Positions 3,379-24,478 are shown, numbered from the stretch's first letter. The stretch is DNA of 64,000 nt from an uncultured Acetobacteraceae bacterium (GCA_964235615.1 CAXSEE010000001.1:200-64199), one strand, 5' to 3'. The notes: a model not told the origin generated them from the sequence alone. Numbers and translations: made by a program.

Positions 3379-3406
3379 GCCCACTCCCGATCGACTGCCG
3401 GTCAGA

Positions 3407-6049
3407 TTATTTGAAGGTGTAGGAAAGCTTCAAACCTGCTGTCAACGGGCGGGTGACGATGATGGATTTCACGAACTGGGCCGAGCTGATGAATTGCTGG
3501 CCGCGCTCGTCGGTGAAGTTCTCGCAGAAGATCTGTGCCCTGAAATCGCCCTTGGAGACGCCCATGGAGGCATCGGCGATCGTGTACGGCTTCATGAAGT
3601 AGTTGTTGAAGGTCGCCACCGCCGAGTGCGAGCTCGAGGTGTAGGTCACGCCGATCTGGAAGAACGGAAAGAAGTCGTGGAACTCGAACTCGTAGCGGCC
3701 GCGGAGATTGCCCTTGAAGGCCGGCGACAGCGCCAGGGTGTCGCCATCCTGGCCGAAGATGCCGGCCGAGCCCGGCAGGATGGTTCCGGTCGGACTGGTC
3801 ACCGGTGGTGAGTTCAACTGCGTTGTGTCGTTGGCGGCAAATCCTCCGGTCAAGGTCAGACCCAGGATCGGCCGGAGCGTTGCCTGAAGCTCCGTGCCAC
3901 GCACGCGGTAGTTCGGACCGTTGACGGTGAACGCCAGGTTGCCGAACGCCCCGGGGTCGAACAGCCGGTCCTGAACATTGTCCCAGTTCTCCTGGTAGAT
4001 GGCGCCGTCGAGGGTCAGGCGATGATGCAGGAACTGCATCTTGTAGCCGATCTCGTTGTTCGTCAGGCCATCCGACGTGTAGGCGATCGGCCCGACGAAG
4101 TCGCCGGACTTGGGCGCCCGTCGATTGAAGCCGCCCGGCCGGTAGCCTTCCGAGTAGGTGTAGTAGACCATGATGTCGGGCGTGACCTTGTAGGTCAGGT
4201 TGGCCCGGTTGCGGAAGCCGTAGGACGCGGACTCCAGATGCTTGGCGTCGAGGTTGGTGGCGTCGGCGAGGCAGGGGGTGGGACCGCTGTAGCCGACGCT
4301 GCAGCCGAAGCTGCTGACCGCCGAGCCCACCTCGAAGTTATGGAAATCGAACCAGCGGGTGCCGAACGTCGCCGTCAGCCTGTTGGGGATGATGTCGTAG
4401 TCGGCGGACCCGAAGATCGCATACTGGGTGTAGCCGCGGGTGACGTCGTTGAAGAAGCCCGTTTCGGCGGCTCGCGTGTTCGGATCGATCGCGGTCGAGC
4501 CGGGTGGCGGTCCGATCGGCGTGAAGCCGGGTGCGGTGAGATAGTCGAAGTTCGTCCGGTCCTGGACCTGGAACTTTTCGTAGAAGAAGCCGCCGATGGC
4601 GCGGAACCGCCAGTTGTCCGGAGTGCTGACGCGCAACTCCTGGCTCAGATGGTTGTCGTGCTCGATGTCCTGCCAGGTGCCGCCGGGCGAATAGCATTGC
4701 GACTTGGGAAAGCCCTTGGCTGGATTGGCCGGCTGGCACTGGTAATAATCCGCATAGAGGCCGCGGGCGTAGTTGGTGTAATCCTGAACCTGCGTCGCAT
4801 CCCGAACCAGGTAGGCGCCGTCATAGACGACCTTGAGGAAGCCGACGCGTCCGTTGATGGTCAGCGCGGTGTTCTCGAAATAATCGTGGTCATAGGACGG
4901 CTCGAAGATCTGGGCGGAGAGATCCGGCAGCTTCACCGGAGAACTGCCGGACGTATAGGGCATGTCGTAGAAGACGCCCTCGGCATCCAGCCTCTGGGCG
5001 GACTCCGACAGCAGGACGTTCCAGTCGTCGTCGAATTGGTAGAGCACCTCGCCCCGGATGCCCTGGTAGGTGGCGGGATTGATGTTCTTCTGGGCGATAT
5101 TGAAGTTGTTGATCGAGTTCGTCGCGGTTGCCGGGCCAGGCGTGTTGTTGGCGTAGTGGGCGTAGTGGATGCCGAGATCGGTCTTCTCGCGCACGAAGGT
5201 GCCGGGGGCATTGTCGATATAGCCGCCGCGTCCGTCGTCGTACATGACGAGACGCGCGGCCAGCTTGTCCTTGATGATCGGCGCGTTGATGATGACGTCG
5301 GCATTCTCGTTGCCCGCGCCATGGGCGGTGCCTCCGGCACCGGCGTCGACGGTCACGTAGTATTTGTCCAGATCGGGTTTGTTGGTGATATAGCGCAGCA
5401 CGCCGGCCTGCGCGCCGGATCCGAACAATGTTCCCTGCGGGCCTTCGAGCACTTCGACCCGCTGCAGGTCGACCGCGTAGATATCGAGGTTCCGGCCGGG
5501 GATCTCGGCGGACTGGTCGTCGAGATAGATCGCGACGTTGGGGAACGAGCCGACGCCGCCGCCGCTCTGGCCGCCCTCGTCACCGCCGATGCTCAAGCCG
5601 CGCATGTAGATGTTCTGCTGGCCCGGCCCGAACCCGCCCGCCGTCACGTTGGGAAGCTGGCGGAGCATGTCGTCGAAATTCTCGATGTTCAACCGCTTGA
5701 GCGTCTCGCCCGTCAGCACCTGGACCGAAACCGGCACGTCCTGGAGGTTCTGGCTGCGCCGTTGCGCCGTCACCGTCACGACTTCGCCGTTGTCCGCAGC
5801 ACTGGTGGGTTTGGCGGGTCTGGTGGGTGTCGCAGGCTTGGTGGCCGGCGCGCCGCTGCCGCTGAAGGGGATCGCCGGCGTGAGTGGCGCGTTCGTCGTG
5901 CTGCCGGTGCTCTGGGCCCGGGCCGCCGAACCTACCAGGACGCCAAGGGCGATTCCAGACAGCAGTGTCTTCCTGAAGTCGCGGCGCCTGGAGCCGGGAG
6001 CCGCCGCGACAGAAGGAAGCAGAAGGCGTTTCGCGGATAGCTGCCTCAA
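3407..6049 (-). CDS. TonB-dependent outer-membrane receptor
   Basis: TonB box/plug VVTVTAQRRSQNLQDVPVSV, RVEVLEGPQGTLFG, YSEGYRPGGFN, terminal beta strand LSYTFK; TTG start. Confidence 0.93.
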   Translation of the reverse strand: MRQLSAKRLLLPSVAAAPGSRRRDFRKTLLSGIALGVLVGSAARAQSTGSTTNAPLTPAIPFSGSGAPATKPATPTRPAKPTSAADNGEVVTVTAQRRSQNLQDVPVSVQVLTGETLKRLNIENFDDMLRQLPNVTAGGFGPGQQNIYMRGLSIGGDEGGQSGGGVGSFPNVAIYLDDQSAEIPGRNLDIYAVDLQRVEVLEGPQGTLFGSGAQAGVLRYITNKPDLDKYYVTVDAGAGGTAHGAGNENADVIINAPIIKDKLAARLVMYDDGRGGYIDNAPGTFVREKTDLGIHYAHYANNTPGPATATNSINNFNIAQKNINPATYQGIRGEVLYQFDDDWNVLLSESAQRLDAEGVFYDMPYTSGSSPVKLPDLSAQIFEPSYDHDYFENTALTINGRVGFLKVVYDGAYLVRDATQVQDYTNYARGLYADYYQCQPANPAKGFPKSQCYSPGGTWQDIEHDNHLSQELRVSTPDNWRFRAIGGFFYEKFQVQDRTNFDYLTAPGFTPIGPPPGSTAIDPNTRAAETGFFNDVTRGYTQYAIFGSADYDIIPNRLTATFGTRWFDFHNFEVGSAVSSFGCSVGYSGPTPCLADATNLDAKHLESASYGFRNRANLTYKVTPDIMVYYTYSEGYRPGGFNRRAPKSGDFVGPIAYTSDGLTNNEIGYKMQFLHHRLTLDGAIYQENWDNVQDRLFDPGAFGNLAFTVNGPNYRVRGTELQATLRPILGLTLTGGFAANDTTQLNSPPVTSPTGTILPGSAGIFGQDGDTLALSPAFKGNLRGRYEFEFHDFFPFFQIGVTYTSSSHSAVATFNNYFMKPYTIADASMGVSKGDFRAQIFCENFTDERGQQFISSAQFVKSIIVTRPLTAGLKLSYTFK

Positions 6050-6338
6050 AAGTCCCTACTCCCTGGGTCGTGAAACCAGCACGCATCGAGTGGCGTTGCG
6101 TCTTGGACCGTTACGGCTCGCGAAATCTGAATTAAGATTATCTCGCAGGGTAACCAGTAAATATCACGGGCCGGCTCGGTTATTGCAGAATCGCGTCGCG
6201 TTACAGAACGTAAACGACAACCATAAAGACCAAGGCTTTGCCCTGGCCCCCACCCGGCGAAGCCTTGAGACTCCAATCATGTCTACAAATTGGTTTCCAA
6301 AGGCCGATGCCTTTGGCGGGTCTGGGCAGAGCCCAGCC

Positions 6339-7445
6339 TTACCCGGCGGCCCAGGCGGCAAGCTCGTCAGGATCGCGCTCTCCGGCGATGGCGGCTGCGA
6401 GCGCTTCGCCCATGAGCGGTCCGAGCTTGAAGCCGTGGCCGGAGCAGGCGCTGCCGAGCCAACCTTTGTTGCCTTCGCGCCGGACCAGGAAACGCTCGTC
6501 CCTGGTTACCGTGTAGAAACAGGCGCGACGCTCCAGCACCGTGTATCGGTCGAAGTCGCGGTACGCCAAGCGAGCGGCGTCGACGAGGCGCGCGACATCC
6601 GCATCGGTGCCGGCGCGGTCGCCATCGGGATCGCCCTGGCGGGTGAACTGGTGGTCGCCGATCTTGAGCCTTGTGCCCGGACGCGGCGGCAAGGTGTAGC
6701 TGCCGCTCTGCAATCCGATATCGATCAGGACTGGCGCCTGCGCCCAGGCTGCCGCGAGCTCGGGCGGCGCCCCCAGGTACATGACAGCTTGACGCGACGG
6801 CACCGCGACACCCTCCAATGCGGGAAGCAGCCGGCTGGCCCAGGCGCCGGCGGTCACCACCACCATGTCGCCGCGGACCGTGCCGCCCGCGGTGCGCAGC
6901 GTACCGGCTTCGAGATCGACCGCTTCGACCAGCGTGTTCGGATGCAGCACGACGCCCCGGCCCGGCAACAGATTGGCGAGATCGGTCAGGATGCGTATCG
7001 GGTAGAGCATCCCGGCCCCCTCGGTGCGGACGACGCGTGTCAGGCCTTCGGTGCGTATCATCGGATACAAAGCGGGGATATCGGCCAGCGGCACTTCCTC
7101 GCAGCCGATCTCCATGCGCCGCATCGAACGCTGCGTGGCCGGATACCAGTCGCTGTCGCCGCGCATGAAATAGATCGCAGGCATCGGGTCGTAATGCGTG
7201 GCGCCGAGATCTTGCCAGAGGGCATCCCAGACCTTGAAGGCCTGCGGCATCAGATAGGCGTAGCCCTCCATCTCGCCATAGGCGTGACGGATGATCCGGT
7301 GCTCGTCATAGGAAGAGGCGCGCGGATGCGGCAGCGGTCCCTGCTCGAACAGCTCGACGGAAAATCCGCGCCGGTTCAGCGCCCAGGCGGTGCTCATGCC
7401 GGCGATCCCGCCACCGACGATCAGGATTTTTCCTTTTGGCGACAT
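6339..7445 (-). CDS. FAD-dependent amine oxidase, monomeric sarcosine oxidase / N-methyl-amino-acid oxidase family
   Basis: GGGIAG FAD motif, RASSYDEHRIIRHAYG, ACFYT, SACSGHGFKLGP. Confidence 0.8.
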   Translation of the reverse strand: MSPKGKILIVGGGIAGMSTAWALNRRGFSVELFEQGPLPHPRASSYDEHRIIRHAYGEMEGYAYLMPQAFKVWDALWQDLGATHYDPMPAIYFMRGDSDWYPATQRSMRRMEIGCEEVPLADIPALYPMIRTEGLTRVVRTEGAGMLYPIRILTDLANLLPGRGVVLHPNTLVEAVDLEAGTLRTAGGTVRGDMVVVTAGAWASRLLPALEGVAVPSRQAVMYLGAPPELAAAWAQAPVLIDIGLQSGSYTLPPRPGTRLKIGDHQFTRQGDPDGDRAGTDADVARLVDAARLAYRDFDRYTVLERRACFYTVTRDERFLVRREGNKGWLGSACSGHGFKLGPLMGEALAAAIAGERDPDELAAWAAG

Positions 7446-7466
7446 CGACGAATACCTTGTGATTGA

Positions 7467-8621
7467 TCAGGCAGCCAGGCTCGCCGGCGTGACCCAGCCC
7501 TGGACCCGGCGCCAGTCCGGATCGAGATCGGCGAAGCGGGCAAGCGACAATTTGCCGATATCGGCAAAGGAACAGCGTCCGTCCATGACCAGATCGCGCA
7601 AGGCGTGGCCGGTGGCGGGCGAAAGACCGAAACCCACGCCCGACATCGTCGCGATCGTGACGTTGCCGGGATTTGCCGGCCGGTCGAGCACCGGGCGTCC
7701 GTCCGGCGTGTTCTCGACGATGCCGCCCCAGGAGCGGATGACGCGAACATGCGCCGCCTTCGGAAACAGTTGCGCCAACCGGCGCGAGAGATGCTGCAAC
7801 ACCGGCGTGGAGGGACGGCTCAGTACGCCTTCCAGCGGCGGTTCATCCATCCATTCGTGCCAGCCGCCGCCATAGGCGAGGTTGCCGCGCAGGGTCTGGC
7901 GGCCATACAGGCCATTGCCGTCGACGCCGCCGATCGGCATCAGCGGCAGCGCCTCGGTGACGATCATCTCCGCCCGCGCCGGCGCCAGCGGCAGCTCGAT
8001 CCCGATCTCGCGCAGCAGACGCCCCGATTGCGGTCCCGCCGCCACCACGAGCTGGTCGCAGCCGATCACGCCTGCCGCGGTGCGTACGCCTGACGCACGG
8101 CCGCCGGCCATCTCGATGCCCTGGACCGGGCAATGCTGCAGGATGCGCGCGCCATGATCCTGCGCCGCCCAGGCATAGGCCTGCACGGTTCGCTGCGGGT
8201 TGGCGTGGCCGCCGGTATGGATATGCACCCCCCCGATCGCGGTCTCGCCGGCGAGCGGCACCGCATCGCGCACCTGCCTCGCGTCCAGCGGCGTGGCGCG
8301 ATAGCCGAGCCGGTCGAGGATCGCGGCGGTGCGGCGGTAGCGCGCCAACTGCGGCTCCGACACGGCGACGATGATGCGCTCCGGCCGATGCTCGGTCGGA
8401 TAACCGAGCAGGCGGTCCATCTGCGGCCAGAGGCGCTGCTCCTCGTCGAACAGCGGGCTCTGGTAGTGGGTCGCGCCGCCGCCGTTGCGGCTCGACGCCT
8501 CGTAGCCGATCACGCCCTTGTCCAGCACGATGACGTCCACGCCCTCGCGCGCCAGCCACCAGGCGGCGCTCAATCCCGTCACGCCGCCGCCGATGACGAC
8601 GACGCTTGCTCCATTCGACAT
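7467..8621 (-). CDS. DAO-family FAD oxidoreductase (OoxB/SoxB/HcnC-like subunit)
   Basis: GGGVTG, EASSRNGGG, RSWGG...TPDGRP, GVGFGLSP. Confidence 0.8.
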   Translation of the reverse strand: MSNGASVVVIGGGVTGLSAAWWLAREGVDVIVLDKGVIGYEASSRNGGGATHYQSPLFDEEQRLWPQMDRLLGYPTEHRPERIIVAVSEPQLARYRRTAAILDRLGYRATPLDARQVRDAVPLAGETAIGGVHIHTGGHANPQRTVQAYAWAAQDHGARILQHCPVQGIEMAGGRASGVRTAAGVIGCDQLVVAAGPQSGRLLREIGIELPLAPARAEMIVTEALPLMPIGGVDGNGLYGRQTLRGNLAYGGGWHEWMDEPPLEGVLSRPSTPVLQHLSRRLAQLFPKAAHVRVIRSWGGIVENTPDGRPVLDRPANPGNVTIATMSGVGFGLSPATGHALRDLVMDGRCSFADIGKLSLARFADLDPDWRRVQGWVTPASLAA

Positions 8622-8636
8622 CGGGTGCGGGCCTCC

Positions 8637-10199
8637 TCAGAGATGCATGTCGTCGCCGAGCGCTTCGGCTTCGCGCGGCGTGCCGATGTCGGCATAGGGC
8701 ACCCATTGCGCCGCGATGCCGAACCACACGTCCCAGCCGGCCTGCGACGCCGCGTCGTCGGGCGCCGATAGGGCCTGGAGCGTCAAGGGCCGCACCGGGG
8801 CGCGATAACCGGCCAGCCGGACCCCGCCCGCCTCGATCCCTGCGCCGATCGCCAGCAGCATCGCCACCTGCTCGCGACAGCGGCGCGCCTGGCAGGGACC
8901 CATCGAGACCCGGGTCAGGCGCTTGAGCTGATCGTGATCGACCGGACCATCCCGCAGCAATGTGGCGAGGTCGCGTGCGGCGCCGGCATCGGGCGCGCAT
9001 CCCAGGTAACGCGGCGGGCGGACGCCGAGCAGTTCGGCCCGCGTCACTTCCTCGCAGGTGCAGGCCAGCACGTCGGCGCCGCCGGTCGCGAGCAGGAGCC
9101 GCATCCAGTCCATGCGGCAGGAGAAGCTGCCATCGTCGACGCCAGGCGGGATCGCGCGGCCGTATCCGGCTCCGAGCAGCACCGCTTTTGCGGCGCGCGC
9201 GCCCTGGGCCGCCGCGTCGCCACCCAGGCCCGCGCAATCCCCGGCCACCGCGATGCCCGCGACGGGTGTGAGGCCGTTCTCGTCCTGTGTCGGCACGTAG
9301 CCGCCGCGTCCGGGGTCCATCACCAGGGGCACGCCGAGCACGTCGAGCAGCTCCACCGACGGCACCACTCCCAACGCCAGGCAGATGGTGTCGCACTCGA
9401 TGCGGCGGCCCTCTCCCGCGCCGACCGGCATCGCATGCAGCGCGACAACTCCCTCGACATTGCATTCGGCGCGCAGGGGAACATGGCCGCAGATTACCTC
9501 GACGCCACGCGCCCGCAAGGCAGCGACCAGCGCGTCCGGTCCCTGCGGCGTGTCCCGCGCCTCGATCAGGGCCGCGACCTCGATCCCGTGGTCCAGCGCC
9601 AGCAGGGCGGTCTCCAGCGCCAGCCGGCCCGAACCGAGCAGGATCACACGCCGTCCGGAGAAGGCCTGGTAGCGCACGAGCAGAGCCTGCAGCGCCTGCG
9701 CGCCCATGACGCCGGGCTGGTCGGAGCCCGCGAACGAGAGCACCAGGTCACGCGCGCCCGCGGCAATGACGGCGGCATCGAAGCCGCACAGCCAGGATCG
9801 CTCCTCTGTGGCGAGGCCGGCGATCGGGCAGGGCAGGGATTGCAGCCCAGGAGCGCGCGTCCAGGCGCCCCAGACGCTCACGCCGAGCATGACCTCGACC
9901 CCGGCCTCGAACACGGCTTCGAGTCCAGGGATCGCGGAGGCGATCTGCTCCATCATGCGCGCCTGGTTGGCGATCGCGGGGCTGGCCCGGCCGCCGAAGC
10001 AGAACGGCACGTCCAGCGCTGCCATGCCGGCCGCGACCGGATGCTCGTCGACCAGCAGCACCGACTGCCCGCGGCGGGCTCCTTCGAGTGCCGCAGCAAT
10101 GCCTGCGGGGCCAGCCCCCACCACGAGCAGCCCGACATGCTGCTCCGGCCGGGGGAACTTCCCCGCCACCGACTTGGGATCGATTATCAGGCTGTCCAT
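8637..10199 (-). CDS. FAD/NAD(P) oxidoreductase with C-terminal BFD-like [2Fe-2S] domain (OoxA/HcnB-like subunit)
   Basis: GAGPAG, GARD...PGV, VAGDCAG, CTCEEVT ... LKRLTRVSMGPCQARRC. Confidence 0.75.
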   Translation of the reverse strand: MDSLIIDPKSVAGKFPRPEQHVGLLVVGAGPAGIAAALEGARRGQSVLLVDEHPVAAGMAALDVPFCFGGRASPAIANQARMMEQIASAIPGLEAVFEAGVEVMLGVSVWGAWTRAPGLQSLPCPIAGLATEERSWLCGFDAAVIAAGARDLVLSFAGSDQPGVMGAQALQALLVRYQAFSGRRVILLGSGRLALETALLALDHGIEVAALIEARDTPQGPDALVAALRARGVEVICGHVPLRAECNVEGVVALHAMPVGAGEGRRIECDTICLALGVVPSVELLDVLGVPLVMDPGRGGYVPTQDENGLTPVAGIAVAGDCAGLGGDAAAQGARAAKAVLLGAGYGRAIPPGVDDGSFSCRMDWMRLLLATGGADVLACTCEEVTRAELLGVRPPRYLGCAPDAGAARDLATLLRDGPVDHDQLKRLTRVSMGPCQARRCREQVAMLLAIGAGIEAGGVRLAGYRAPVRPLTLQALSAPDDAASQAGWDVWFGIAAQWVPYADIGTPREAEALGDDMHL

Positions 10200-10202
10200 C
10201 TC

Positions 10203-11450
10203 TCAGATCTTCTCCAGCGCCTGCGCAAGATCGGCGATCAGGTCCGCCTCATGCTCGATGCCGACCGAGATGCGCATCGTCGCATCCGTCACCCCGGCAG
10301 CCTCGCGGCGATGTCTCGGCACCGAGACATGCGTGGTGGTGGCGGAGTGGCAGATCAGCGTCTCGGTGCCGCCGAGGCTCACGGCAAGATGCAGCACGCG
10401 CAGCGCATCGAGCATGCGGAAGGCTTCCGCCTCGCCGCCCTCGATGTCGAACGCGAAGGTGGAGCCGGCGCCGGCGCATTGACGCCGGAACACCTCCCGC
10501 GCCCGCGAACCCTCCGGCAGCAACCCGGCCCAGGTCACGCGGGCGATCTTGGCATGGGAGGCGAGGAAACCCGCCACGGCCGCCGCATTGCGTCCCGCGC
10601 GTTCCGTGCGCAGGCCCATCGTCTCGATGGAACGCAGCAGCAGCCAGCATCCATGCGGATCGAGGTGGGTGCCGAGCAGGGTGCGGACCTTGCGCAGCGG
10701 CTCGATCAGCGCGAGCCTGCCCGACACCGCGCCGGCCAGGAAGTCGCTGTGGCCGGCCGCGTATTTCGTCATCGACGTGATGCAGAGATCCGCACCCTGC
10801 TCGAGCGGATTCTGCAGCAGCGGACCCAGGAAGGTGTTGTCCACCACCAGCACGGGACGGCGGCCCTGTCGCAGTTCCAGCGCCCGTGCGAGGCGCGCGA
10901 GCAGGGCGATGTCGGCGATTGCCGCGGTCGGATTGGCCGGCGTCTCGGCCATGATCACGCCGACCGGGCCATGGCGTAGCGCTTCCTCGGCGGCGGCGAA
11001 CACCGCGCCCTCGTCGAGTGCATCGCGGATCGCAACCGGGGTCACGCCTTGGACGGGCAGCAGCAGCAGGTTCATCAGCCCGTCGGTGCCGCCGTAGATC
11101 GGCGACGTATGCAGCACGCTGTCGCCCGGGCGCAACAGCGAGAGCAATGTGGTCGAGATCGCCGCCATGCCGCTGTTGAACACCGCGCACGCCTCGGCGC
11201 GATCGAGTGCGGCCATGCGGTCCTGTATCATCAGCAGGTTCGGATGATCGAGGCGGGCATAGATGAAGCCGCATTCGGCGTCGTCGAGCGGCGAGCGGCC
11301 GGCGGCATAGGCCTCGTGTGCCGTCTTCGCGTGCATGGCGTCGCGATAGACGAACGTCGAGGTCATGTAGATGGGCGGCTTGGCGGCACCATGATGCGCC
11401 TGCGGATCATAGCCGTGACTGACCATGATCGTCTCGGGGTGCAACGTCAC
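10203..11450 (-). CDS. PLP-dependent Cys/Met metabolism enzyme, methionine gamma-lyase / cystathionine gamma-synthase-like
   Basis: SHGYDP...KPPIYMTSTF, YARLDHPN, ETPANPT, VVDNTF, PLP lysine in SMTKYAAGHSD, AVSLGGTETL; GTG 11450 overlaps the upstream stop (GTGA), so the listed ORF start 11894 is too long. Confidence 0.85.
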   Translation of the reverse strand: MTLHPETIMVSHGYDPQAHHGAAKPPIYMTSTFVYRDAMHAKTAHEAYAAGRSPLDDAECGFIYARLDHPNLLMIQDRMAALDRAEACAVFNSGMAAISTTLLSLLRPGDSVLHTSPIYGGTDGLMNLLLLPVQGVTPVAIRDALDEGAVFAAAEEALRHGPVGVIMAETPANPTAAIADIALLARLARALELRQGRRPVLVVDNTFLGPLLQNPLEQGADLCITSMTKYAAGHSDFLAGAVSGRLALIEPLRKVRTLLGTHLDPHGCWLLLRSIETMGLRTERAGRNAAAVAGFLASHAKIARVTWAGLLPEGSRAREVFRRQCAGAGSTFAFDIEGGEAEAFRMLDALRVLHLAVSLGGTETLICHSATTTHVSVPRHRREAAGVTDATMRISVGIEHEADLIADLAQALEKI

Positions 11451-12670
11451 AGCACCTCGGCCCCCACCTGCCGCACGTACCAATCGGTGAAGCGCAGGGC
11501 CAGCGATTCCGAGGCGATGCAGTAGGGGCCAGGCGTGTAGCCCAGCGAGTTGACGCCGCGCTGGTTGTTCTCGACCAGTTCGCGATCCTGCAGGTTGGTC
11601 TCGTTCCAGAGCCGCATCAGGTCGTCGCGGTCGTAATCGACACCCTCCTCGGCGTCCTTGTGCACGAGCCACTTCGCGACCACGACCGTCTCCTGCGGGC
11701 CGACCGGGAGTGCCGAGAACATGAACAGGAAATCCCCGAGCGCATGGAAGAAGCTGTGCGGCTCCAGCCCCAGGCGCAGCGAACCGACGGCGCCCCCATT
11801 GATGGAACACATCGGTTTCTTCACGCAGGGCTCGCCATCGACGGTCATCGAGGTGAAGCCCCGGCGCAGCGGAAAGCGCACCGCCTGCCACCATTCGCCC
11901 TCGACCGCGCCGTGCGGCAGATCGAGCCGGTCCATGCGGGCCCTGAACGCCGCCGCATCCTCGTCGCTCATCAGGTTGAAATGGCCGCCGGCGTCGATCG
12001 GAAAGGTCAGCGACAATTCAGGATGCTTGGCCGCGCAATGATAGCATTCGCGGCCATTCTCCATTACCAGCTTCCAGTTGCAGCGCTCGGTCAGCGTATA
12101 TTCCGCGGCCACCTTGGCGTGGAGCAGGTCATGCGGCGCCAGCAGCGGAGACAGCTTGTCGTGGAAATCGTCGAACTCCGGCGCATCCTCGGCCAGGCAG
12201 ACGAACACCGCGCCGGCGACGGTGCGGACATGGATCGGCTTGAGGCCATGCGTGGCCTTGTCGAAATCCGGCTGCATCTTGCTGGCCCCGCGCAGGGCGC
12301 CGGTGTCGTCATAGCTCCATTGGTGGTAGGGGCAGACCAGCATGCGCGCGCTGCCGCAACCATCCGGCAGGATCTGCGCGCCACGGTGCCGGCAGGAATT
12401 GAAGAAGCCGCGGATTGCGCCGTCCCGTCCGCGCATGAGCAGGATCGGCGTGCGCCCGATGGTGATAGCCATCGTGCTGCCAACCTCGGGAAGCTCGATC
12501 TCGAAGCCGATCAACAGCCAGGAGCGGCCATAGATCTGGCGCAGATCGAAATCGAAGATGTCCGGATCGGTATAGAAAGCCTGCGGCAGGTTATGCCCGG
12601 GACGGCGCTTGGCCAGCAACGTGGCCACCTTCGACGCGGTCCGGTCCGGTATCAGGCCCTGGTCAAGCAT
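11447..12670 (-). CDS. Rieske non-heme iron oxygenase alpha subunit (GbcA/Stc2-like)
   Basis: Rieske CRH...CPYH; mononuclear Fe ENGRECYHC...HPEL and QD. Confidence 0.9.
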   Translation of the reverse strand: MLDQGLIPDRTASKVATLLAKRRPGHNLPQAFYTDPDIFDFDLRQIYGRSWLLIGFEIELPEVGSTMAITIGRTPILLMRGRDGAIRGFFNSCRHRGAQILPDGCGSARMLVCPYHQWSYDDTGALRGASKMQPDFDKATHGLKPIHVRTVAGAVFVCLAEDAPEFDDFHDKLSPLLAPHDLLHAKVAAEYTLTERCNWKLVMENGRECYHCAAKHPELSLTFPIDAGGHFNLMSDEDAAAFRARMDRLDLPHGAVEGEWWQAVRFPLRRGFTSMTVDGEPCVKKPMCSINGGAVGSLRLGLEPHSFFHALGDFLFMFSALPVGPQETVVVAKWLVHKDAEEGVDYDRDDLMRLWNETNLQDRELVENNQRGVNSLGYTPGPYCIASESLALRFTDWYVRQVGAEVL

Positions 12671-12833
12671 CTCGATGCTCCGTTTGCACCTCCAGAGTGG
12701 CAGATCCAGAACGACATGGCGTAATCGTATTTGTTCATGAGCCTATGTGTTTTTAGGATTGGCTATGCGTCTATCGTAGGTCTAACGTGCGCAGGAAACA
12801 TGGCAAGCTTCGGCGATAGGGACCTGGCTGGAC

Positions 12834-13760
12834 ATGATCAACCGGCGCTGGCTGCCGCTTAATGCACTGCGCGCCTTCGAGGCGGTCGGCCGCCATCTCA
12901 GCTTCACGGCGGGCGCACAGGCGCTCAATGTTTCGCAGAGCGCCCTCAGCCGGCATGTGCAGACGCTCGAGGACCTGCTCGGCTGCCAGTTGCTGCAACG
13001 CCGTCCGCATGGACTGGAGCTGACGCCGGCTGGCCTGTCGCTGCTGCCTGCCGTCAACCGTTCGTTCGACCGGCTGGAGCAGGAACTGAACGAGATCATC
13101 CGCAACCGGGGATCCCAGCCGCGAACGTTGCGGGTGCATATGCCTCCCTCCTTTCTGCAACAGGTGGCGATCCCGGTGCTGAAGGGTTTCCACCGCGAAT
13201 TCCCCGACATCCTCGTCGACATCTCCTCTTCCTACGACACCGGACTGCCGGCCGGAGAACTCGATATCGCCGTCGTCTATGACCGGCCGCAGGTGAGCCA
13301 GACCGTGACCGACCTGTTATGGATGATCCGTGTGGCACCGGTATGCGCGCCCGAAGTCGCGCGCGCCCATGCGGACAAACCGTTGGAGCGGTTCCTGCGC
13401 GACAACGAGTTGCTGCATGTGAAGCTGCAGGGTCAGGCGCGCGAGATGCTGTGGGCGAGCTACACGCGCCAGCTCGGATTGCAGATCGACACCAACCGCG
13501 GGCTTGCCTTCGAGACCGGGATCCTCGCTGCCAGCTACGCCATCTCGGGGGGTGGCGTGGCGCTCGCCGATATCGATCTCTTCGCCGCCGAGATCGCATC
13601 CGGGACACTCGCCATGCCCTATGAGATCGCTGTCGAGGAGGGACACGGCTATTTCCTGACCCTCCATGCCGAGGATCTGGCGGACCCGGCAGTGGCGCTG
13701 TTCAGAAGCTGGATGATCGAGCATTGCGCCAAGGCCGGCGCGAGGGCGGCAGCGGCATGA
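12834..13760 (+). CDS. LysR-family regulator, GcvA/AmpR-like
   Basis: LPLNALRAFEAVGRHLSFT...VSQSALSRHV helix-turn-helix; divergent from the Rieske operon. Confidence 0.92.
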   Translation: MINRRWLPLNALRAFEAVGRHLSFTAGAQALNVSQSALSRHVQTLEDLLGCQLLQRRPHGLELTPAGLSLLPAVNRSFDRLEQELNEIIRNRGSQPRTLRVHMPPSFLQQVAIPVLKGFHREFPDILVDISSSYDTGLPAGELDIAVVYDRPQVSQTVTDLLWMIRVAPVCAPEVARAHADKPLERFLRDNELLHVKLQGQAREMLWASYTRQLGLQIDTNRGLAFETGILAASYAISGGGVALADIDLFAAEIASGTLAMPYEIAVEEGHGYFLTLHAEDLADPAVALFRSWMIEHCAKAGARAAAA

Positions 13761-15364
13761 TCCGCCGGGATGCGGTGCATCCGGGCGTGCGGCCGTTGCA
13801 GGACGCCTATCGTCGCGGCCAGCTCGCGCGGCGGGACTTCCTGCGTGCCGTCGCGTTGCTCGGCGTTCCGGTGGCGGTCGCGGGCAGGCCGGCCCAGGCT
13901 ATGGCGCCGGTAGCGGGGGCGCCGGTGGTGCCGAAATACGGGGGCAGCCTGCGCATGGCCTGCCGGGTGGAGCAGATGGACAACCCGGCCATCGTCAGCT
14001 GGTTCGAAGTCGCCAACGTCTTCCGCAACAGCCTCGAATATCTGACCCGGATCGATGCCGACAACATCACCCGGCCGTATTTAGCCGAGAGTTGGCTGCC
14101 ATCCGCCGATCTGCGTGTCTGGGAGTTCCGCCTGCGCCGCCGCGTGCGCTGGTCCAACGGCGACCCTTTCGACAGCCGCGACGTCGCGGCGACCATCGGC
14201 ATGTGGCTGGCGCCGGACTCGGAATCTGTCAACAAGACCAGCTTCGCGATGATCTCCGGCGTGGAGATCGTCGACGCATGGACCATCCGGCTGCATCTCT
14301 CGCGTCCGACGCTCGCCCTGCCGGAGATGCTGTTCGCGCCGACCTGTCCGATGCTGCATCGTTCCTTCGCCACCTCGGGCAGAAACTGGCCCGAGGCGCC
14401 GATCGGCACCGGACCCTATCGGCTGGCCCGGTTCCTGGTCGGCGAGGAGGCGGTCCTTGCCCGCCGCGACGATTACTGGGGTGCCAAACCCTATCTCGAC
14501 ACGCTGCGCTTCATCGACCTGGGCACCAACGTGTCCACGCATCTCGCCGCACTCGATGGCGGACAGCTCGACCTGCTCTACAAGATCGACGCCTCCGACC
14601 TGCCGCTCGCGACCCGGCTGCCTGGCGTGCAGATCATCTCCGCGCACGCCGCCCAGACCGTCTGCATGCGCATGCAGGTCGACCAGGCGCCGTTCCACGA
14701 TATCCGCGTCCGCCGCGCGGTGCAGGCATCGGCCGACCTGGAGGCCATCCTGCGTCTCGGTTATGCCGGCGCCGGCACGATGGCGACGAATTGCCACGCG
14801 GCGCCGTTGCAGACGGATTACGTGGCCATTGCGGCACCCAAGCGCGACCTGGATCTCGCGCGTCATCTGCTGCGCGAGGCCGGACACGCGGAAGGCATCG
14901 ACCTGACCTTGATGGTCGGCAACACCCAGGGCGTCTGGGAGCAGAACACGGCGCAGGTGTTCCAGCAGAATTGCGCGGAAGCCGGCATACGTATCCGGCT
15001 CGACGTGATCCCCCCGAACGAATACATGACGATCTGGAACAGGATGCCGTTCGGGCTCACCTTCTGGGCGCATCGTCCGCTGGCGATGATGACGTATGAC
15101 ATCGCCTACCGCTCGAAAGGTCCCTGGAACGAGACCCACTTTGCCGACCCGGCGTTCGATGCCGCACTCGATCGCGCCATGAGCACGACGGATCCGCTCC
15201 TGCACGACACGGTGATGCGACAGGCCGAGACCATCCTGCAGCAGGCGGCCCTTTTCGTGCAGCCGTTCTGGATGAACAAATACACCGCCGCTTCGGCGCG
15301 GGTGCGGGATTACCGGCTGAATGCTGGCGACTGCTTCGATCTGGCGCCGGTATGGCTGGCATGA
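13757..15364 (+). CDS. ABC substrate-binding protein family 5 (DppA/OppA-like) with Tat signal
   Basis: RRDFLR twin-arginine motif, PYLAESW, PIGTGPY; ATGA overlap with LysR stop. Confidence 0.9.
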   Translation: MIRRDAVHPGVRPLQDAYRRGQLARRDFLRAVALLGVPVAVAGRPAQAMAPVAGAPVVPKYGGSLRMACRVEQMDNPAIVSWFEVANVFRNSLEYLTRIDADNITRPYLAESWLPSADLRVWEFRLRRRVRWSNGDPFDSRDVAATIGMWLAPDSESVNKTSFAMISGVEIVDAWTIRLHLSRPTLALPEMLFAPTCPMLHRSFATSGRNWPEAPIGTGPYRLARFLVGEEAVLARRDDYWGAKPYLDTLRFIDLGTNVSTHLAALDGGQLDLLYKIDASDLPLATRLPGVQIISAHAAQTVCMRMQVDQAPFHDIRVRRAVQASADLEAILRLGYAGAGTMATNCHAAPLQTDYVAIAAPKRDLDLARHLLREAGHAEGIDLTLMVGNTQGVWEQNTAQVFQQNCAEAGIRIRLDVIPPNEYMTIWNRMPFGLTFWAHRPLAMMTYDIAYRSKGPWNETHFADPAFDAALDRAMSTTDPLLHDTVMRQAETILQQAALFVQPFWMNKYTAASARVRDYRLNAGDCFDLAPVWLA

Positions 15365-16317
15365 GCGGCGTTGCCGCAAGGCTCGGGGGCATGGCGCTGA
15401 AGCTGCTGGCGGTGTCGCTGCTCGTCTACGCCGTGCTGGAGGTCAATTCCGGCGAGGTCGCGGCCAAGGTGCTCGGCCAGTTCTCGACCGAGGCGCAGAG
15501 GGCGCGATGGCTGCAAGCCCACGGCTATGACGCGCCCTTCATGCTCCGCTATCTGCGCTGGCTCGGCGACTTCCTGCGTGGCGACTGGGGGATCTCGACG
15601 CATTACCGTGTTCCCGTGATCCAGATCGTGCCGCGCCGCCTGCTGGCGACCCTGTGGCTGGCATTGCTGACCTTGCTGGTCATGGTCCCGTTGGGCCTGG
15701 GTCTCGGCATCCTCTCCGGCGTGTTCGCCGACAGGCCGCTCGACCGCGCGATCTCGACGCTGAGCATCGTCACCACCTCGATCCCCGACTATGCGAGCTG
15801 CGCCTTTCTCTCCGCGATCTTCGTGGTCGGACTGCGCTGGCTTCCCGGCGCCAGCACCATGACCGACGGCCTGTCCCTGCGTCAGATGATACTGCCGGTG
15901 CTGGTGCTGTCGCTCTATTCCACGGGCTACATCGCCCGCATGACGCGTGCCTCCATGCGCGAGGAATTGCGCCGCCCCTATATCCGCACTGCCCGGCTCA
16001 AGGGCGCCTCCCGCGCGCGCATCGTGCTGCGGCACGCGTTGCGCAACGCGCTGCTGGCGCCGGTCACGGTGATCCTGCTGCAGATCCCGTGGCTGCTTTC
16101 CGGCGTGATCGTGGTCGAGGTCTTCTTTGCCTATCGCGGCTTCGGGTCCCTGCTCTACGAGGCGGCGCTGAACAGCGACCTGCCGGTGATCGAGGCCTGC
16201 ACCATGCTGAGCGTGATCGTCGTAGGCATCACCCAGCAGGTATCGGACGGGTTGAACGCCTTGCTCAACCCGCGCCTGCGCTCCCTGCGCGTGGCACCCC
16301 GCATCGCCGCGACCTGA
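15361..16317 (+). CDS. ABC permease (DppB-like)
   Basis: GDWGIS, EAA loop ARLKG, RHALRNAL; ATGA coupling. Confidence 0.9.
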   Translation: MSGVAARLGGMALKLLAVSLLVYAVLEVNSGEVAAKVLGQFSTEAQRARWLQAHGYDAPFMLRYLRWLGDFLRGDWGISTHYRVPVIQIVPRRLLATLWLALLTLLVMVPLGLGLGILSGVFADRPLDRAISTLSIVTTSIPDYASCAFLSAIFVVGLRWLPGASTMTDGLSLRQMILPVLVLSLYSTGYIARMTRASMREELRRPYIRTARLKGASRARIVLRHALRNALLAPVTVILLQIPWLLSGVIVVEVFFAYRGFGSLLYEAALNSDLPVIEACTMLSVIVVGITQQVSDGLNALLNPRLRSLRVAPRIAAT

Positions 16318-16318
16318 G

Positions 16319-17155
16319 ATGGCCGGATCCCGCGGGCCTCCGCTCGACGCGCAACTGGTGATCGGCAGCACCATCATCGGCTTCTGGCTGATCTGCGCAT
16401 TGTTCGGACCGTGGCTGGAGCCTTTCGATCCGCTGCGCAGCAGCGTGGCGTTGATGCTGCCACTGTCGCGCGACTTGGCGGGCCTGCATTGGCTTGGCAC
16501 CGACATACTGGGACGCGATATCCTGTCCCGCCTGATCGGCGGCACCCGCGCGGTGCTGCTCTGGTCGGTGCTGGCGACGTCCTGCGCCTATATCGCGGGC
16601 GTCTCCTCGGGCATGCTCGCGGGTTATCTCGGACGCGCCACCGACCGCCTGCTGTGCTTCCTGGCCGACGTGATGCTGTCTTTCCCCGTCCTGGTGCTGT
16701 ATCTGCTGATCATCGTCCGGCTCGGCGCCTCCGGGATCAACATCATCCTGGCCGTGACGTTCGCCAGCGCGCCGGCCATCTTCAGGATCGTCCGGGCCTT
16801 GGTGATGGGCGAACGCGAGCGCGACTATGTCCGCGTCTGCGTGACCCAAGGCGAGCCGCTGTGGCGCATCCTGATCAGCGAGATCCTGCCCAACGTGACA
16901 CGGCCGCTCGCCGTCGATGCCTGTCTCCGGCTCGGCTATACCGCAATCACCATCGGCCTGCTCGGCTTTCTCGGGCTGGGCCTGCCGCCACCGGCGCCAG
17001 ACTGGGGCGGCATGATCAACGAGGGCCGCGGCATGGCCATCGCGTTCCCGCACCTCATCGTGTTTCCGTGCCTGGCCATTTCCACGCTCATGCTCGGCCT
17101 GTCGATGATCTCGGACGGCCTCGCTCTGCGTAGCCAGAGACTGCGCCAAGTATGA
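16319..17155 (+). CDS. ABC permease (DppC-like)
   Basis: HWLGTDILGRDILSRLIGG, EILPNV, LGLGLPPPAPDWGGMI. Confidence 0.9.
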   Translation: MAGSRGPPLDAQLVIGSTIIGFWLICALFGPWLEPFDPLRSSVALMLPLSRDLAGLHWLGTDILGRDILSRLIGGTRAVLLWSVLATSCAYIAGVSSGMLAGYLGRATDRLLCFLADVMLSFPVLVLYLLIIVRLGASGINIILAVTFASAPAIFRIVRALVMGERERDYVRVCVTQGEPLWRILISEILPNVTRPLAVDACLRLGYTAITIGLLGFLGLGLPPPAPDWGGMINEGRGMAIAFPHLIVFPCLAISTLMLGLSMISDGLALRSQRLRQV

Positions 17156-18771
17156 GGCAGCCGGTGCTCTCGATCGAGGCGCTGAGTGTCACGTTGCCGA
17201 GCGACAGCGATCGCCGCTTCGCCGTGCAGGATGTCAGCCTGGATGTGGCGCGCGGCGAGATCCTCTGCATCGTCGGCGAGTCCGGCTCGGGAAAATCCGT
17301 CCTGACCAGCGCCATCATGGGCGCGTTGCCGGATGGATTGGCATTGTCCGGCGGCAGGATCCTGTTCGAGGGCCGGGACATCAGCCGGCTGCCCGAGGCG
17401 GCGATGCGCAGGCTGCGTGGTGCTTCCATTGCCATGATCTTCCAGGAGCCGATGTCGGCTCTCAATCCCGCGCTCACGGTGGCCGACCAGATCGAGGAAG
17501 TCTTCGAGCTGCACCGCCCCGCCATGCCCCGGGAGGAAAGACGCAGGCGTGTGCTCGCATTGCTGCACGATGTCAGGCTGCCCGATCCGGAAACCCTGTC
17601 GCGAAGGCTGCCGCACCAGCTTTCCGGCGGGCAGTGCCAGCGGATCGTGATCGCCATGGCGCTGGCGCTGGATCCGGTGCTGCTGATCGCCGATGAGCCG
17701 ACCACGGCGCTGGATGTCACCACGCAGGCCCAGATCCTGCGCCTGATGCGCGAGTTGCGTGACGAGCATGGCCACGCGATCCTGTTCATCACCCATGATC
17801 TCGGCGTGGTCGCCGACATCGCCGACAACGTGGTGGTGATGCGTCAGGGGCGGATGGTGGAGCAGGGACCGATGCTGCAGGTCCTGACCGATCCACGTGA
17901 TCCATACACGAAGATGCTGGTGGAGACGCTGCCCGGAACGGTGCCGAAGCATGATCTGCCGCCGCGGGCCTATCCGGCGGTCTCGGTGCGCAATGTCGTG
18001 AAGCATTACGGCCGCAACCGCGCGCTGGACGATATCAGCTTCGACCTGGCGCGCGGCTCGACCCTGGCGATCGTGGGTGAATCCGGTTGCGGCAAAAGCA
18101 CGCTGGCGCGGGCGGTCATCCGTCTCGCGGAAGTCGACTCCGGCCAGGTGGTCATCGACGGCGTCGATTTCGCGACCCTGTCCGGCCGCAGGCTGCGGCA
18201 GATGCGCCGGACCGTGCAGATGGTGTTCCAGGATCCGTACGGCGCGCTCAATCCGAGGCGCAATGTCGGCAAGATCCTGCGCCGGGCCGGCAGGCTCAGC
18301 GGATTGTCCGCAGCCGACGCGCGAGCGCAGGCCCTGGCGTTGATCGACATGGTTGGTCTTCCGCCCGAGGCCTTGCTGCGTGGCGTCGATGCATTTTCCG
18401 GCGGACAAAGGCAGCGCGTCGGCATCGCGCGCGCGCTCGCCATGCGCCCAGGCGTGATCATCGCCGATGAGATCGTGGCGGCGCTGGACATGTCGATGCA
18501 GGCGCAGATCCTCGACCTGCTGGCGCGCCTGAAACGCGATGCCGGCCTGACCTTGCTGTTCATAACCCATGATCTGCGCGTGGCCGCCGAAATCGCCGAC
18601 ACCGTTGCCGTGATGCACAAGGGGCGGATCGTGGAGATAGGGCCGGCGTCGAAGGTGTTTGCATCTCCCGTGCATGATTACACGCGGCAGTTGCTTGCAG
18701 CGATACCGGGGCAGGCCCTGCGCGGTGCCGCGCGATCGGCCATCGTCGCGCATCAGCCTGCCTCATGGTGA
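17152..18771 (+). CDS. ABC ATPase with two fused domains (DppD/F-like)
   Basis: Walker A GESGSGKS and GESGCGKS; signatures LSGGQCQR and FSGGQRQR. Confidence 0.93.
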   Translation: MRQPVLSIEALSVTLPSDSDRRFAVQDVSLDVARGEILCIVGESGSGKSVLTSAIMGALPDGLALSGGRILFEGRDISRLPEAAMRRLRGASIAMIFQEPMSALNPALTVADQIEEVFELHRPAMPREERRRRVLALLHDVRLPDPETLSRRLPHQLSGGQCQRIVIAMALALDPVLLIADEPTTALDVTTQAQILRLMRELRDEHGHAILFITHDLGVVADIADNVVVMRQGRMVEQGPMLQVLTDPRDPYTKMLVETLPGTVPKHDLPPRAYPAVSVRNVVKHYGRNRALDDISFDLARGSTLAIVGESGCGKSTLARAVIRLAEVDSGQVVIDGVDFATLSGRRLRQMRRTVQMVFQDPYGALNPRRNVGKILRRAGRLSGLSAADARAQALALIDMVGLPPEALLRGVDAFSGGQRQRVGIARALAMRPGVIIADEIVAALDMSMQAQILDLLARLKRDAGLTLLFITHDLRVAAEIADTVAVMHKGRIVEIGPASKVFASPVHDYTRQLLAAIPGQALRGAARSAIVAHQPASW

Positions 18772-19653
18772 AGCCGGTATGCCGGCCATCCAGCGCCGCG
18801 CAAGCTCCGGATGTCGCGCCAGCGCCGCGCGCGCTGCATCCGGACCGGCTTCGTGCCGTTCGGTCATCGCATGCATCATCTCGGTCTCGAGATTGGTGTC
18901 GAATGACACGTTATGCAGGAGCTTCCCCAGGATCGGGCATTCCTGGCTCAGCCCGTGCCGGGTTACCGTGTAGACCGTGCTGCTGCCGTAATCGGGTCCA
19001 ATGAAACCCTGTCCTCCCGATAGATAGACAAGACTGACCTGCGTGTTCATGGGATTCGGTTCCCAGGCGAGGAACACGATCCAGGCGTTTCGCGCCACCT
19101 CCCGCTGCATCTGCGCGCGCATGCCGAATTCGCTCGATTCGACCAGACGCCAGTCCTTGAGACCGTAGTTGCCGGTTTCGATCATGCGCCGGAGCCTCTC
19201 ATTCCCGGGCGATCCCGGGTCTATGCCGTAGATGCGGCGGTCGAACCGGTCGGCGAACCGGCTGAGATCCGCGATGTCATGCACCCCGGCCGCGGCGACA
19301 TAGGACGGGACGGCAAGCGTGAAGCGTGCGTGGGCCAGATTGGCCACGATCCTGTCGATCCGATGGGCGGCCAGCAGGGTATCGGCGAAATGCTGCTGTG
19401 CCGGCATCCAGTTGCCGAGGAACACGTCCAGCCGTCCGCTGGCCAGCGCCTGGAAGATGATCGGCACAGCCAGGGTCTCGATCTTCGGTGTGTATCCCGC
19501 ACGACGCAGGGTCTCGTCCAGCAAGGCGTCGGTGGCGGCGATGTCGCTCCAGCCGGGCTCCGCCACGCGCACCGTCCGGCAGGCTTGCAGGTCGTCGGCC
19601 ATCACCGGATGCGACGCCATCAACACCAGCCATGCCGCGAACATGGCTCTCAC
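18763..19653 (-). CDS. Orphan choline/betaine-family ABC binding protein (ChoX paralog, possibly choline-O-sulfate binding)
   Basis: CRTVRVAEPGWSDI, DVFLGNWMP, IYGIDPG, FLAWEPNPMN; ATGA-coupled downstream of betC. Confidence 0.8.
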   Translation of the reverse strand: MRAMFAAWLVLMASHPVMADDLQACRTVRVAEPGWSDIAATDALLDETLRRAGYTPKIETLAVPIIFQALASGRLDVFLGNWMPAQQHFADTLLAAHRIDRIVANLAHARFTLAVPSYVAAAGVHDIADLSRFADRFDRRIYGIDPGSPGNERLRRMIETGNYGLKDWRLVESSEFGMRAQMQREVARNAWIVFLAWEPNPMNTQVSLVYLSGGQGFIGPDYGSSTVYTVTRHGLSQECPILGKLLHNVSFDTNLETEMMHAMTERHEAGPDAARAALARHPELARRWMAGIPASP

Positions 19654-21185: not shown

Positions 21186-21204
21186 GCCATACCCTGTAGA
21201 ATAA

Positions 21205-22791: not shown

Positions 22792-22818
22792 TCCAGCCGG
22801 CGAAGGCTCGCTCCCCTG

Positions 22819-24468: not shown

Positions 24469-24478
24469 GAACCCTCTT

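Follow-up and report, generated by a model that had tools for sequence, protein, structure and literature searches.

The present analysis concerns a stretch of 64,000 nucleotides from an uncultured Acetobacteraceae bacterium (GCA_964235615.1, CAXSEE010000001.1:200-64199), referred to in its full length as the window, and within it a cluster of ten genes at positions 6339-18771, which an original prediction had described as a catabolic unit made up of a Rieske demethylase, a gamma-lyase, three flavin amine oxidases and a dedicated importer. Genes were called from the list of open reading frames together with Pfam and NCBIfam scans of the window, and all ten named genes were found where they had been predicted. 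The cluster and its intergenic features are laid out as follows:

6223-6253, minus strand: terminator-like hairpin of 14 pairs after the MSOX-like gene, the strongest site of the scan
6339-7445, minus strand: flavoenzyme resembling monomeric sarcosine oxidase (MSOX) and N-methyltryptophan oxidase (MTOX), by residue alignment with MSOX
7467-8621, minus strand: OoxB/SoxB-like beta subunit (catalytic, DAO-family), resembling 1Y56_B and TSOX beta
8637-10199, minus strand: OoxA-like or SoxA-N-terminal-like alpha subunit (Pyr_redox_2), matching positions 165-597 of TIGR01372 with 126 bits, and TSOX alpha (2GAG_A)
10203-11450, minus strand: Cys/Met-family pyridoxal phosphate (PLP) enzyme (PF01053; NF005455 520 bits, cut-off 504)
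11447-12670, minus strand: Rieske non-haem-iron oxygenase (PF00355 and PF00848; GbcA model 413 bits)
12671-12833: divergent intergenic (promoter/operator) region of 163 bp between the Rieske and LysR genes
12834-13760, plus strand: LysR-family (GcvA-type) regulator with HTH_1 and LysR_substrate domains, first gene of the importer operon
13757-15364, plus strand: SBP_bac_5 family-5 periplasmic binding protein (SBP5) of the Dpp/Nik/opine type, with a Tat-like RRDFLR signal
15352-16317 and 16319-17155, plus strand: two ABC permeases
17152-18771, plus strand: fused double ABC ATPase of the DppD/F type

The expected arrangement, a packed minus-strand run of five genes divergent from LysR and an ABC importer, is borne out by the spacing. 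The GTG start of the PLP gene overlaps the Rieske stop codon as GTGA, indicating translational coupling, and is followed by gaps of 3 nt (PLP-OoxA), 15 nt (OoxA-OoxB) and 21 nt (OoxB-MSOX-like), while on the other strand the SBP_bac_5 start overlaps the LysR stop as ATGA. No clear inverted repeat or LysR box was seen in the 163-bp intergenic region, and promoter and terminator scans of the region, taken as a whole, gave results no better than chance.

Conservation of this gene order was assessed with an alignment scan for the PLP enzyme using one genome per species, which matched at least 598 stretches, a figure that includes matches to canonical paralogues and is not a count of carriers. The locus counts given here and below refer to the best 80 loci out of these at least 598 stretches, fetched around relatives of the PLP enzyme and read by tblastn with the window's proteins. 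Rieske, PLP, OoxA and OoxB genes follow one another in one order and on one strand in approximately 70 of the 80 loci (about 70 alphaproteobacterial species), and in most of the 80 a divergent LysR orthologue (51-72% identity) stands beside the Rieske gene. This recurrence of the gene arrangement is not due to chance. The carriers belong to at least six families, e.g., Acetobacteraceae, Acidocellaceae, Caulobacteraceae, Sphingomonadaceae, Xanthobacteraceae, Rhizobiaceae, Aurantimonadaceae and Ferrovibrionaceae, and carrier groups are also listed as Sphingomonadales and Rhizobiales. Co-occurrence of the genes in other genomes, on which the original prediction had staked itself, therefore proved to be wide. 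The nearest relatives of the Rieske protein (66-72% identity) are found in Acidiphilium and other Acetobacteraceae, and relatives with about 60% identity are widespread; since 400 genomes sampled evenly across the class yielded a single further orthologue with more than 55% identity, the cluster is patchy rather than universal.

Contexts retrieved by exact protein showed the cluster block in Acidiphilium and in a metagenome-assembled genome (MAG) of Azospirillaceae. The copy in an Acetobacter MAG has a ferredoxin and a ferredoxin reductase added, that of Methylobacterium organophilum contains a GbcB-type reductase between the Rieske and PLP genes as well as ETF-QO, and in a metagenome contig (ENA assembly) SoxBDAG replaces the MSOX-like gene. 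In six loci (L006, L008, L018, L023, L027, L031) a GbcB-type reductase gene is placed in this way between Rieske and PLP, and Fer2 and FdR lie inside one further orthologous locus (L004), which brings the loci with electron-transfer genes to seven. The last position of the run is the variable one, being filled by an MSOX-like gene in about 13 of the 80 loci, by SoxBDAG in about 30 and by neither locally in the rest. Thus, of the five-enzyme unit initially proposed, four genes (Rieske-PLP-OoxA-OoxB) stand as a fixed core, whereas the fifth varies or is absent. A megablast comparison of the region with plasmids returned fragments only; the cluster itself was not found, and the search pointed to a Paracoccus gbcAB-OoxAB locus considered below.

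The Rieske protein has its best solved relatives in PDB 3N0Q (351 bits) and Stc2 (322 bits), with CntA distant, and it falls below the cut-off of the GbcA equivalog NF058607 (413 against 670 bits). In the alignment its CxH...CxxH and iron-site motifs are present as CRHRG...CPYHQW and ENGRECYHCAAKH, including the RECYHC...H iron-site motif with its bridging Glu and Cys pair. Quaternary-amine Rieske oxygenases are divided into group Va, enzymes cleaving C-N bonds with Tyr or Phe at CntA position 203, and group Vb, whose members N-demethylate alpha-carboxy betaines, have Asn at this site and bind the carboxylate of the substrate at the iron (PMC7948474). In the alignment column of CntA Tyr203, which touches the substrate in CntA and here falls within EN[A/G]RECYHC, the 72 cluster Rieske proteins have Ala in 55 cases, Gly in 17 (Gly206 in the window) and Asn in none, while Asn is present in all four comparison proteins, i.e., Stc2, 3N0Q, the GbcA-like protein of the window and the GbcA of Paracoccus. 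F41, G104, W260-W261-Q262 (WWQ), F266 and F307 are invariant among the 72 and differ in these four, which made up the comparison set of both the alignment and the tree. In the maximum-likelihood tree the 72 form one clade (96/93) apart from the four; the enzyme thus stands apart from Stc2 as well as from the two GbcA-like proteins in the comparison, and the grouping with a characterised enzyme that would have spoken for a familiar substrate was not obtained. We propose that the cluster Rieske proteins constitute a new clade beside group Vb (GbcA/Stc2), with a changed pocket, and that they act as the first N-demethylase. The window cluster contains no reductase gene of its own, and because of this the GbcB-like reductase of the neighbouring glycine betaine system, 19 kb away, is likely the electron donor in trans.

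Stachydrine catabolism (Stc2 of Sinorhizobium meliloti, PDB 3VCA/4QUP; Hpb of Paracoccus) offers the closest parallel for this first step, as the enzymes share a Rieske superclade (322 bits to Stc2) and the RECYHC...H motif with its Cys pair, and as a Rieske enzyme there begins the degradation of an alpha-amino-acid betaine before flavoenzymes (N-methylproline demethylase) remove the later methyls. The cluster differs in its separate clade (96/93), in the change of the Vb Asn to Ala or Gly, in having WWQ in place of Q-F/Y-R, and in that a Cys/Met PLP lyase, which has no part in the stachydrine route, belongs to its core.

This PLP enzyme scores above the cut-off of NF005455 (PRK07049, 'cystathionine gamma-synthase family protein'), and among solved structures it comes nearest to 5IJG (449 bits) and 7SWH (400 bits), both uncharacterised, the closest characterised solved proteins being methionine gamma-lyases (MGL) at about 243 bits. 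Its Y64, R66, Y119, K229, S358 and R393 correspond to Y58, R60, Y113, K210, S339 and R374 of Citrobacter freundii MGL, and these six catalytic residues are invariant in six orthologues. The MGL cysteine (Cys115/116) corresponds to Gly121, however, and Lys239/Asp240 to Arg256/Thr257, and the protein remains below the methionine gamma-lyase model TIGR01328 (312 against 549.7 bits). A paralogue on contig C261 of the same genome (L089:3341-4600), 48% identical to the cluster enzyme, matches NF005455 better (689 bits), which identifies the cluster enzyme as a diverged paralogue; the neighbours of the C261 copy (hldE-like, gmk, a TylF-type methyltransferase and AKR) are of the housekeeping kind and gave no functional clue. 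Compared with a control set of three canonical paralogues, two attempts with other control sets having yielded no specificity positions, the cluster branch has Tyr35 and His45 where the canonical branch has Phe, both within the N-terminal loop of the active site. His stands at the position aligned with MGL Phe49 in 79 of 81 cluster PLP enzymes, against Phe in the canonical paralogues. MGL Phe49 belongs to the pocket that receives the side chain of methionine, and the change to His would turn the lyase pocket polar, favouring a gamma-substituted homoserine. We therefore treat the protein as a proposed gamma-eliminating lyase. Canavanine gamma-lyase is another catabolic lyase of the Cys/Met PLP family with a comparable fold and catalytic set. 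The likeness to these enzymes extends over the fold, the catalytic PLP Lys/Tyr/Arg set, the type of reaction (catabolic gamma-elimination or gamma-replacement) and the type of substrate, an amino acid with a gamma-heteroatom, whereas the cluster enzyme stands apart in its PRK07049 branch (5IJG/7SWH), in lacking the MGL cysteine and in its partner genes.

Membership in the Cys/Met family, with methionine gamma-lyases as the closest characterised solved matches, could also be read in favour of a sulfur route, in which S-methylmethionine or an N-methylated methionine or homocysteine would be converted to methionine or homocysteine and then cleaved by the PLP enzyme. The exchanges of the MGL Cys and of Lys239/Asp240, the low score against the MGL model and the presence of His instead of a hydrophobic pocket residue of MGL, Phe, all argue against this, and we know of no methionine betaine in nature. 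S-methylmethionine carries no N-methyl groups and would keep the Rieske enzyme and three flavoenzymes idle, and for this reason the alternative substrate named by the original prediction fits poorly. We consider the sulfur route very unlikely.

Among the flavoenzymes, the MSOX-like protein retains the equivalents of MSOX R49, R52, K265 and H269 and of the flavinylation residue C315 (RIIRHAYGE, LKIGDH and ACFYT in the alignment to 1EL5), although it remains below the family cut-offs of NF008425 (171.7 against 257 bits) and TIGR01377 (135.9 against 479.65 bits); we propose it as the third demethylase. The OoxAB-like pair, a DAO-family beta and a Pyr_redox_2 alpha subunit encoded side by side, shows similarity to TSOX alpha/beta and to archaeal proline dehydrogenase, though the closest solved relative of the beta subunit, archaeal proline dehydrogenase 1Y56_B, reaches only 100 bits. 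Characterised opine and D-hydroxyproline dehydrogenases carry a small gamma [2Fe-2S] subunit of the OdhC/HcnA type (PMC4575208). The gaps of 3, 15 and 21 nt leave no room for such a gene in the window, and no Fer2_4 match was found in either subunit. The 'OoxA-like' label given initially can be kept as a statement of resemblance and not of subunit composition. In the same vein, the cluster shares with OoxAB, NoxAB, OdhABC and D-hydroxyproline dehydrogenase (Watanabe et al. 2015, PMC4575208) the combination of DAO beta and Pyr_redox_2 alpha subunits, and with their operons the divergent LysR regulator and the ABC importer, but it has neither a gamma [2Fe-2S] gene nor a Fer2_4 domain, any link to opines being conjectural.

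We propose that the OoxAB-like pair is the second demethylase. On Paracoccus plasmids an OoxB 62% identical to that of the window, together with an OoxA, lies downstream of gbcAB, and the paper on Paracoccus choline metabolism gives no assignment to the OoxAB-like pair, which we regard as a candidate dimethylglycine demethylase. In Paracoccus versutus pTAV3 (L001) the region 8987-14138 was observed to contain gbcA/gbcB-type genes followed by the OoxA/OoxB-like pair and a GlxA regulator.

With regard to uptake, the cluster is less uniform. The SBP5 protein finds its best matches among solved structures in 5U4O (115 bits) and AgaA (108 bits) and has no close solved relative, and only some 10 of the 80 loci carry an SBP5 importer together with the core, other transporters occurring elsewhere, so that the 'dedicated importer' of the original prediction could not be upheld. 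The importer types vary between SBP5 ABC systems, OpuAC betaine-type ABC systems, which follow LysR in place of SBP5 in two loci (Rhizobium oryzicola and Pseudoxanthobacter), and a TonB receptor with an MFS transporter. In the window, the genes beyond the operon and the reductase mentioned above are located as follows:

101-1360, plus strand: MFS transporter on the downstream side of the operon
1381-3384, minus strand: cytoplasmic TPR-sulfotransferase beyond the TonB receptor, possibly accessory
3407-6049, minus strand: TonB-dependent receptor directly downstream of the operon, a possible accessory uptake gene
31733-32797, minus strand: GbcB-like reductase of the neighbouring glycine betaine system (361 bits to NF058606)

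Sixteen other loci have a relative of the TonB receptor next to the cluster, with 58-71% identity to that of the window in six cases, while relatives of the TPR-sulfotransferase occur in seven loci and an MFS transporter in nine; the TonB receptor and sulfotransferase of the window may thus belong to the same functional unit as the operon.

These transport genes are the starting point for a different explanation, namely that the cluster breaks down a metallophore of the nicotianamine/phytosiderophore or opine type with 3-amino-3-carboxypropyl units as its building blocks. According to this scheme, the chelate would enter through the TonB receptor and an SBP5 system resembling Nik/Cnt, OoxAB and the Rieske enzyme would cut its secondary and tertiary amine links, and the gamma-lyase would take off the aminobutyrate units as 2-oxobutyrate. 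The resemblance of SBP5 to NikA, Opp5A, CntA and AgaA, the siderophore-type TonB receptor by the cluster here and in 16 loci and the resemblance of OoxAB to opine dehydrogenases are all compatible with it, gamma-N leaving groups would be chemically feasible, and the names of some carriers (Novosphingobium rhizosphaerae, Rhizobium oryzicola, Sphingomonas pruni) hint, as names alone can, at plants and the rhizosphere. However, the Rieske enzyme falls with quaternary-amine N-demethylases and has GbcB-type partners, the exchange of MSOX for SoxBDAG indicates N-methyl chemistry, two loci have the OpuAC betaine importer while SBP5 is confined to about 10, and the core is free of metal-related genes. 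A metallophore as the substrate therefore appears improbable to us.

The neighbouring glycine betaine system at 18763-37671 comprises betC, betA, betB, ETF, dgcAB-like, gbcAB-like and soxA-family genes, which provide a complete route from choline-O-sulfate to glycine. Its GbcA-like Rieske protein is 41% identical to that of the cluster and belongs to a separate clade, in agreement with the earlier view that the two systems are distinct. Side observations on the window region 26688-37671 were the scores of this GbcA-like Rieske against the GbcA cut-off (454 against 670 bits, the cluster Rieske with its 413 being below it as well) and of the GbcB-like protein against its own (361 against 500), which suggests that the curated GbcA/GbcB models do not cover alphaproteobacterial enzymes.

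This proximity raises the question of whether the cluster is simply a redundant second system for glycine betaine or proline betaine, with the PLP gene as a passenger, e.g., a methionine or cysteine salvage enzyme. Besides the adjoining full choline-to-glycine pathway, the presence of SoxBDAG next to the cluster in many loci and the redundant glycine betaine monooxygenases of Paracoccus would be consistent with such a role. A passenger is, however, difficult to reconcile with a PLP gene whose place is between Rieske and OoxA in some 70 loci and whose translation is here coupled to that of the Rieske gene, the pocket of the Rieske clade is altered and invariant, and the genome already holds gbcAB-like and dgcAB-like genes and a soxA-family gene. 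Redundancy of this kind is accordingly judged highly doubtful. In comparison with GbcAB-DgcAB-SoxBDAG of Pseudomonas (and BmoAB of Chromohalobacter), the shared features are three successive oxidative N-demethylations (proposed for the cluster), a GbcB-type reductase (in several cluster loci), SoxBDAG or a monomeric oxidase at the last step and, often, one-carbon genes such as PurU nearby, while the cluster differs in its Rieske enzyme (413 against the 670 cut-off), in an OoxAB-like pair instead of DgcAB and in the added PLP step.

Further genes recur by the cluster in other carriers. Alpha/beta-hydrolases of three types are found in about 20 loci together: PETase/DLH/PAF-AH-like proteins in 13 (a signal peptide and GYSMGG are present in the one protein that was read), CocE/NonD hydrolases in three Novosphingobium loci and DUF3089 hydrolases in four Sphingomonadales loci. 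A patatin-like phospholipase gene (L002:1-1532) was seen once, 8 kb upstream of the Acidiphilium cluster copy, and may be a coincidence. Genes for a membrane di-iron protein of the FA_desaturase family, an XRE regulator and a binding protein resembling PhnD recur together next to the cluster in 8-10 Acetobacteraceae/Xanthobacteraceae loci (e.g., L070:16311-17258, L036:6899-7741 and L047:2718-3584); a divergent AceE-like E1 is found in seven loci and PurU in nine. A set consisting of a BBOX/TmpA-like dioxygenase and BADH-like ALDH, HIBADH-like and quinone-oxidoreductase-like genes occurs in 3-9 Caulobacterales loci and looks like another trimethylammonium module. The gamma-butyrobetaine dioxygenase/TmpA-like Fe/2OG enzyme (274-278 bits) was observed beside the cluster LysR in L053:4834-5952, L035, L038 and L084, loci of Caulobacterales and Sphingomonadales, with a second LysR in the module.

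Some of these neighbours bear on another possible type of substrate, one with an omega-trimethylammonio group (N-epsilon-trimethyllysine, the aminolipid trimethylornithine or 2,4-diaminobutyrate betaine), where the three oxidative enzymes would demethylate the far end and the PLP enzyme would act on the free alpha-amino end. The replaced Vb Asn and the Trp-Trp pair could mean another binding mode, BBOX/TMLD-like dioxygenase and BADH-like ALDH genes lie by the cluster in 3-4 loci, and the esterase/lipase-like neighbours would suit an aminolipid source. Nevertheless, lysine or ornithine would not need a gamma-lyase of the Cys/Met family, a gamma-trimethylammonium group would be open to direct attack by the lyase, making the demethylases superfluous, and the BBOX-like module is present in few loci only; this type of substrate seems quite unlikely. 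Methiopine-type opines, hypaphorine, hercynine, trimethyllysine by a carnitine-like route and S-methylmethionine were also considered as candidates and rejected, as they leave either the lyase or the demethylases with no role.

No rival explanation accounts for all five enzymes as simply as the following one, to which we give an even chance: that the genes form a catabolic operon under LysR control whose substrate is a quaternary-ammonium alpha-amino acid other than glycine betaine or proline betaine, with homoserine betaine as the best fit. The quaternary compound would be imported, in the window by the SBP5 ABC system, and the Rieske enzyme would remove its first N-methyl group as formaldehyde, with electrons probably supplied by the GbcB-like reductase at 31733-32797. 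The OoxAB-like two-subunit flavin dehydrogenase would then take off the second methyl and the MSOX-like oxidase (SoxBDAG in other genomes) the third, baring a primary alpha-amine, after which the Cys/Met-family PLP enzyme would catalyse gamma-elimination to 2-oxobutyrate, ammonia and the gamma leaving group. This logic of Rieske demethylation, flavin-dependent demethylations and a PLP lyase, already part of the original prediction, gains comparative backing from the exchange for SoxBDAG in about 30 loci, the OoxAB genes of Paracoccus and the GbcB-type genes of six loci.

A betaine as the substrate is supported by five features, i.e., the position of the Rieske clade and its GbcB-type reductase partners, the interchangeability of MSOX-like and SoxBDAG enzymes in the fifth position, the OoxAB-like genes that follow gbcAB in Paracoccus, the OpuAC betaine-type importer of two loci and the frequency of quaternary-amine genes among the neighbours (choline/glycine betaine here; BBOX/TmpA-like, BADH-like ALDH and PurU elsewhere). 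We know of no natural alpha-betaine other than homoserine betaine whose parent amino acid would require an enzyme of the Cys/Met PLP family. The substrate that fits best would be N,N,N-trimethylhomoserine, either as the free osmolyte or as glyceryl-trimethylhomoserine, the deacylated head group of the lipid diacylglyceryl-trimethylhomoserine (DGTS), in which case the lyase would also cleave the ether bond and free glycerol. A gamma-substituted homoserine is favoured since the lyase belongs to the invariant core, while plain homoserine requires no special enzyme, since the change from Phe to His would make the lyase pocket polar, and since esterase-type hydrolases recur next to the cluster.

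A number of points weigh against this interpretation. The substrate assignment follows from pathway logic applied to predicted proteins, and homoserine betaine, as named in the original prediction, stands as the best fit and as something that we infer. The window cluster is without a reductase gene of its own, about half of the 80 loci have no third oxidase nearby, and the OoxAB-like pair is without the gamma [2Fe-2S] subunit of the characterised opine and hydroxyproline dehydrogenases, the demethylation of dimethyl amino acids being a proposed activity of such pairs. The missing Asn signature of group Vb means that the binding geometry may differ, leaving an alpha-betaine substrate not assured, and SBP5 and TonB importers would suit larger or metal-chelating ligands too. 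The carriers fetched were for the most part sampled from freshwater, soil and plant-associated sources, while free homoserine betaine has so far been reported in samples from the sea. Among the carrier genomes, which were the ones counted, BtaA (the DGTS synthase, PF11899) was found in 8 of 51, and it is not present in the genome of the window; an operon recycling self-made DGTS was therefore rejected, and any DGTS used would be exogenous.

Reports of both compounds come from aquatic environments: DGTS takes the place of phospholipids in algae and fungi under phosphate limitation, and homoserine betaine has been measured as a dissolved and particulate marine metabolite. Our literature search turned up no published description of how homoserine betaine or the head group of DGTS is broken down. 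We consider it unlikely, though less so than any of the rival explanations given above, that the cluster is a bacterial route mineralising the DGTS head group through secreted esterases, import, three demethylations and an ether-cleaving lyase.

How glycine betaine, proline betaine and carnitine are catabolised has been charted in detail. The cluster described here is a concrete, conserved candidate for the catabolism of homoserine betaine or the DGTS head group, and it is carried by cultured strains, among them Novosphingobium capsulatum NBRC 12533, N. pokkalii KCTC 42224, Sphingomonas pruni NBRC 15498, Ancylobacter oerskovii CCM 7435, Methylobacterium organophilum and Acidiphilium. What is new in it is a proposed betaine-type operon with a built-in gamma-lyase, together with a new clade of quaternary-amine Rieske enzymes with a changed pocket. 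It also provides a candidate role for OoxAB-like two-subunit flavoenzymes as N,N-dimethyl-amino-acid demethylases, and the first functional context for the uncharacterised PRK07049 family of PLP enzymes with its two orphan crystal structures. If the DGTS route were true, a new type of Cys/Met-family lyase would split the otherwise stable glyceryl-homoserine ether into glycerol, 2-oxobutyrate and ammonia.

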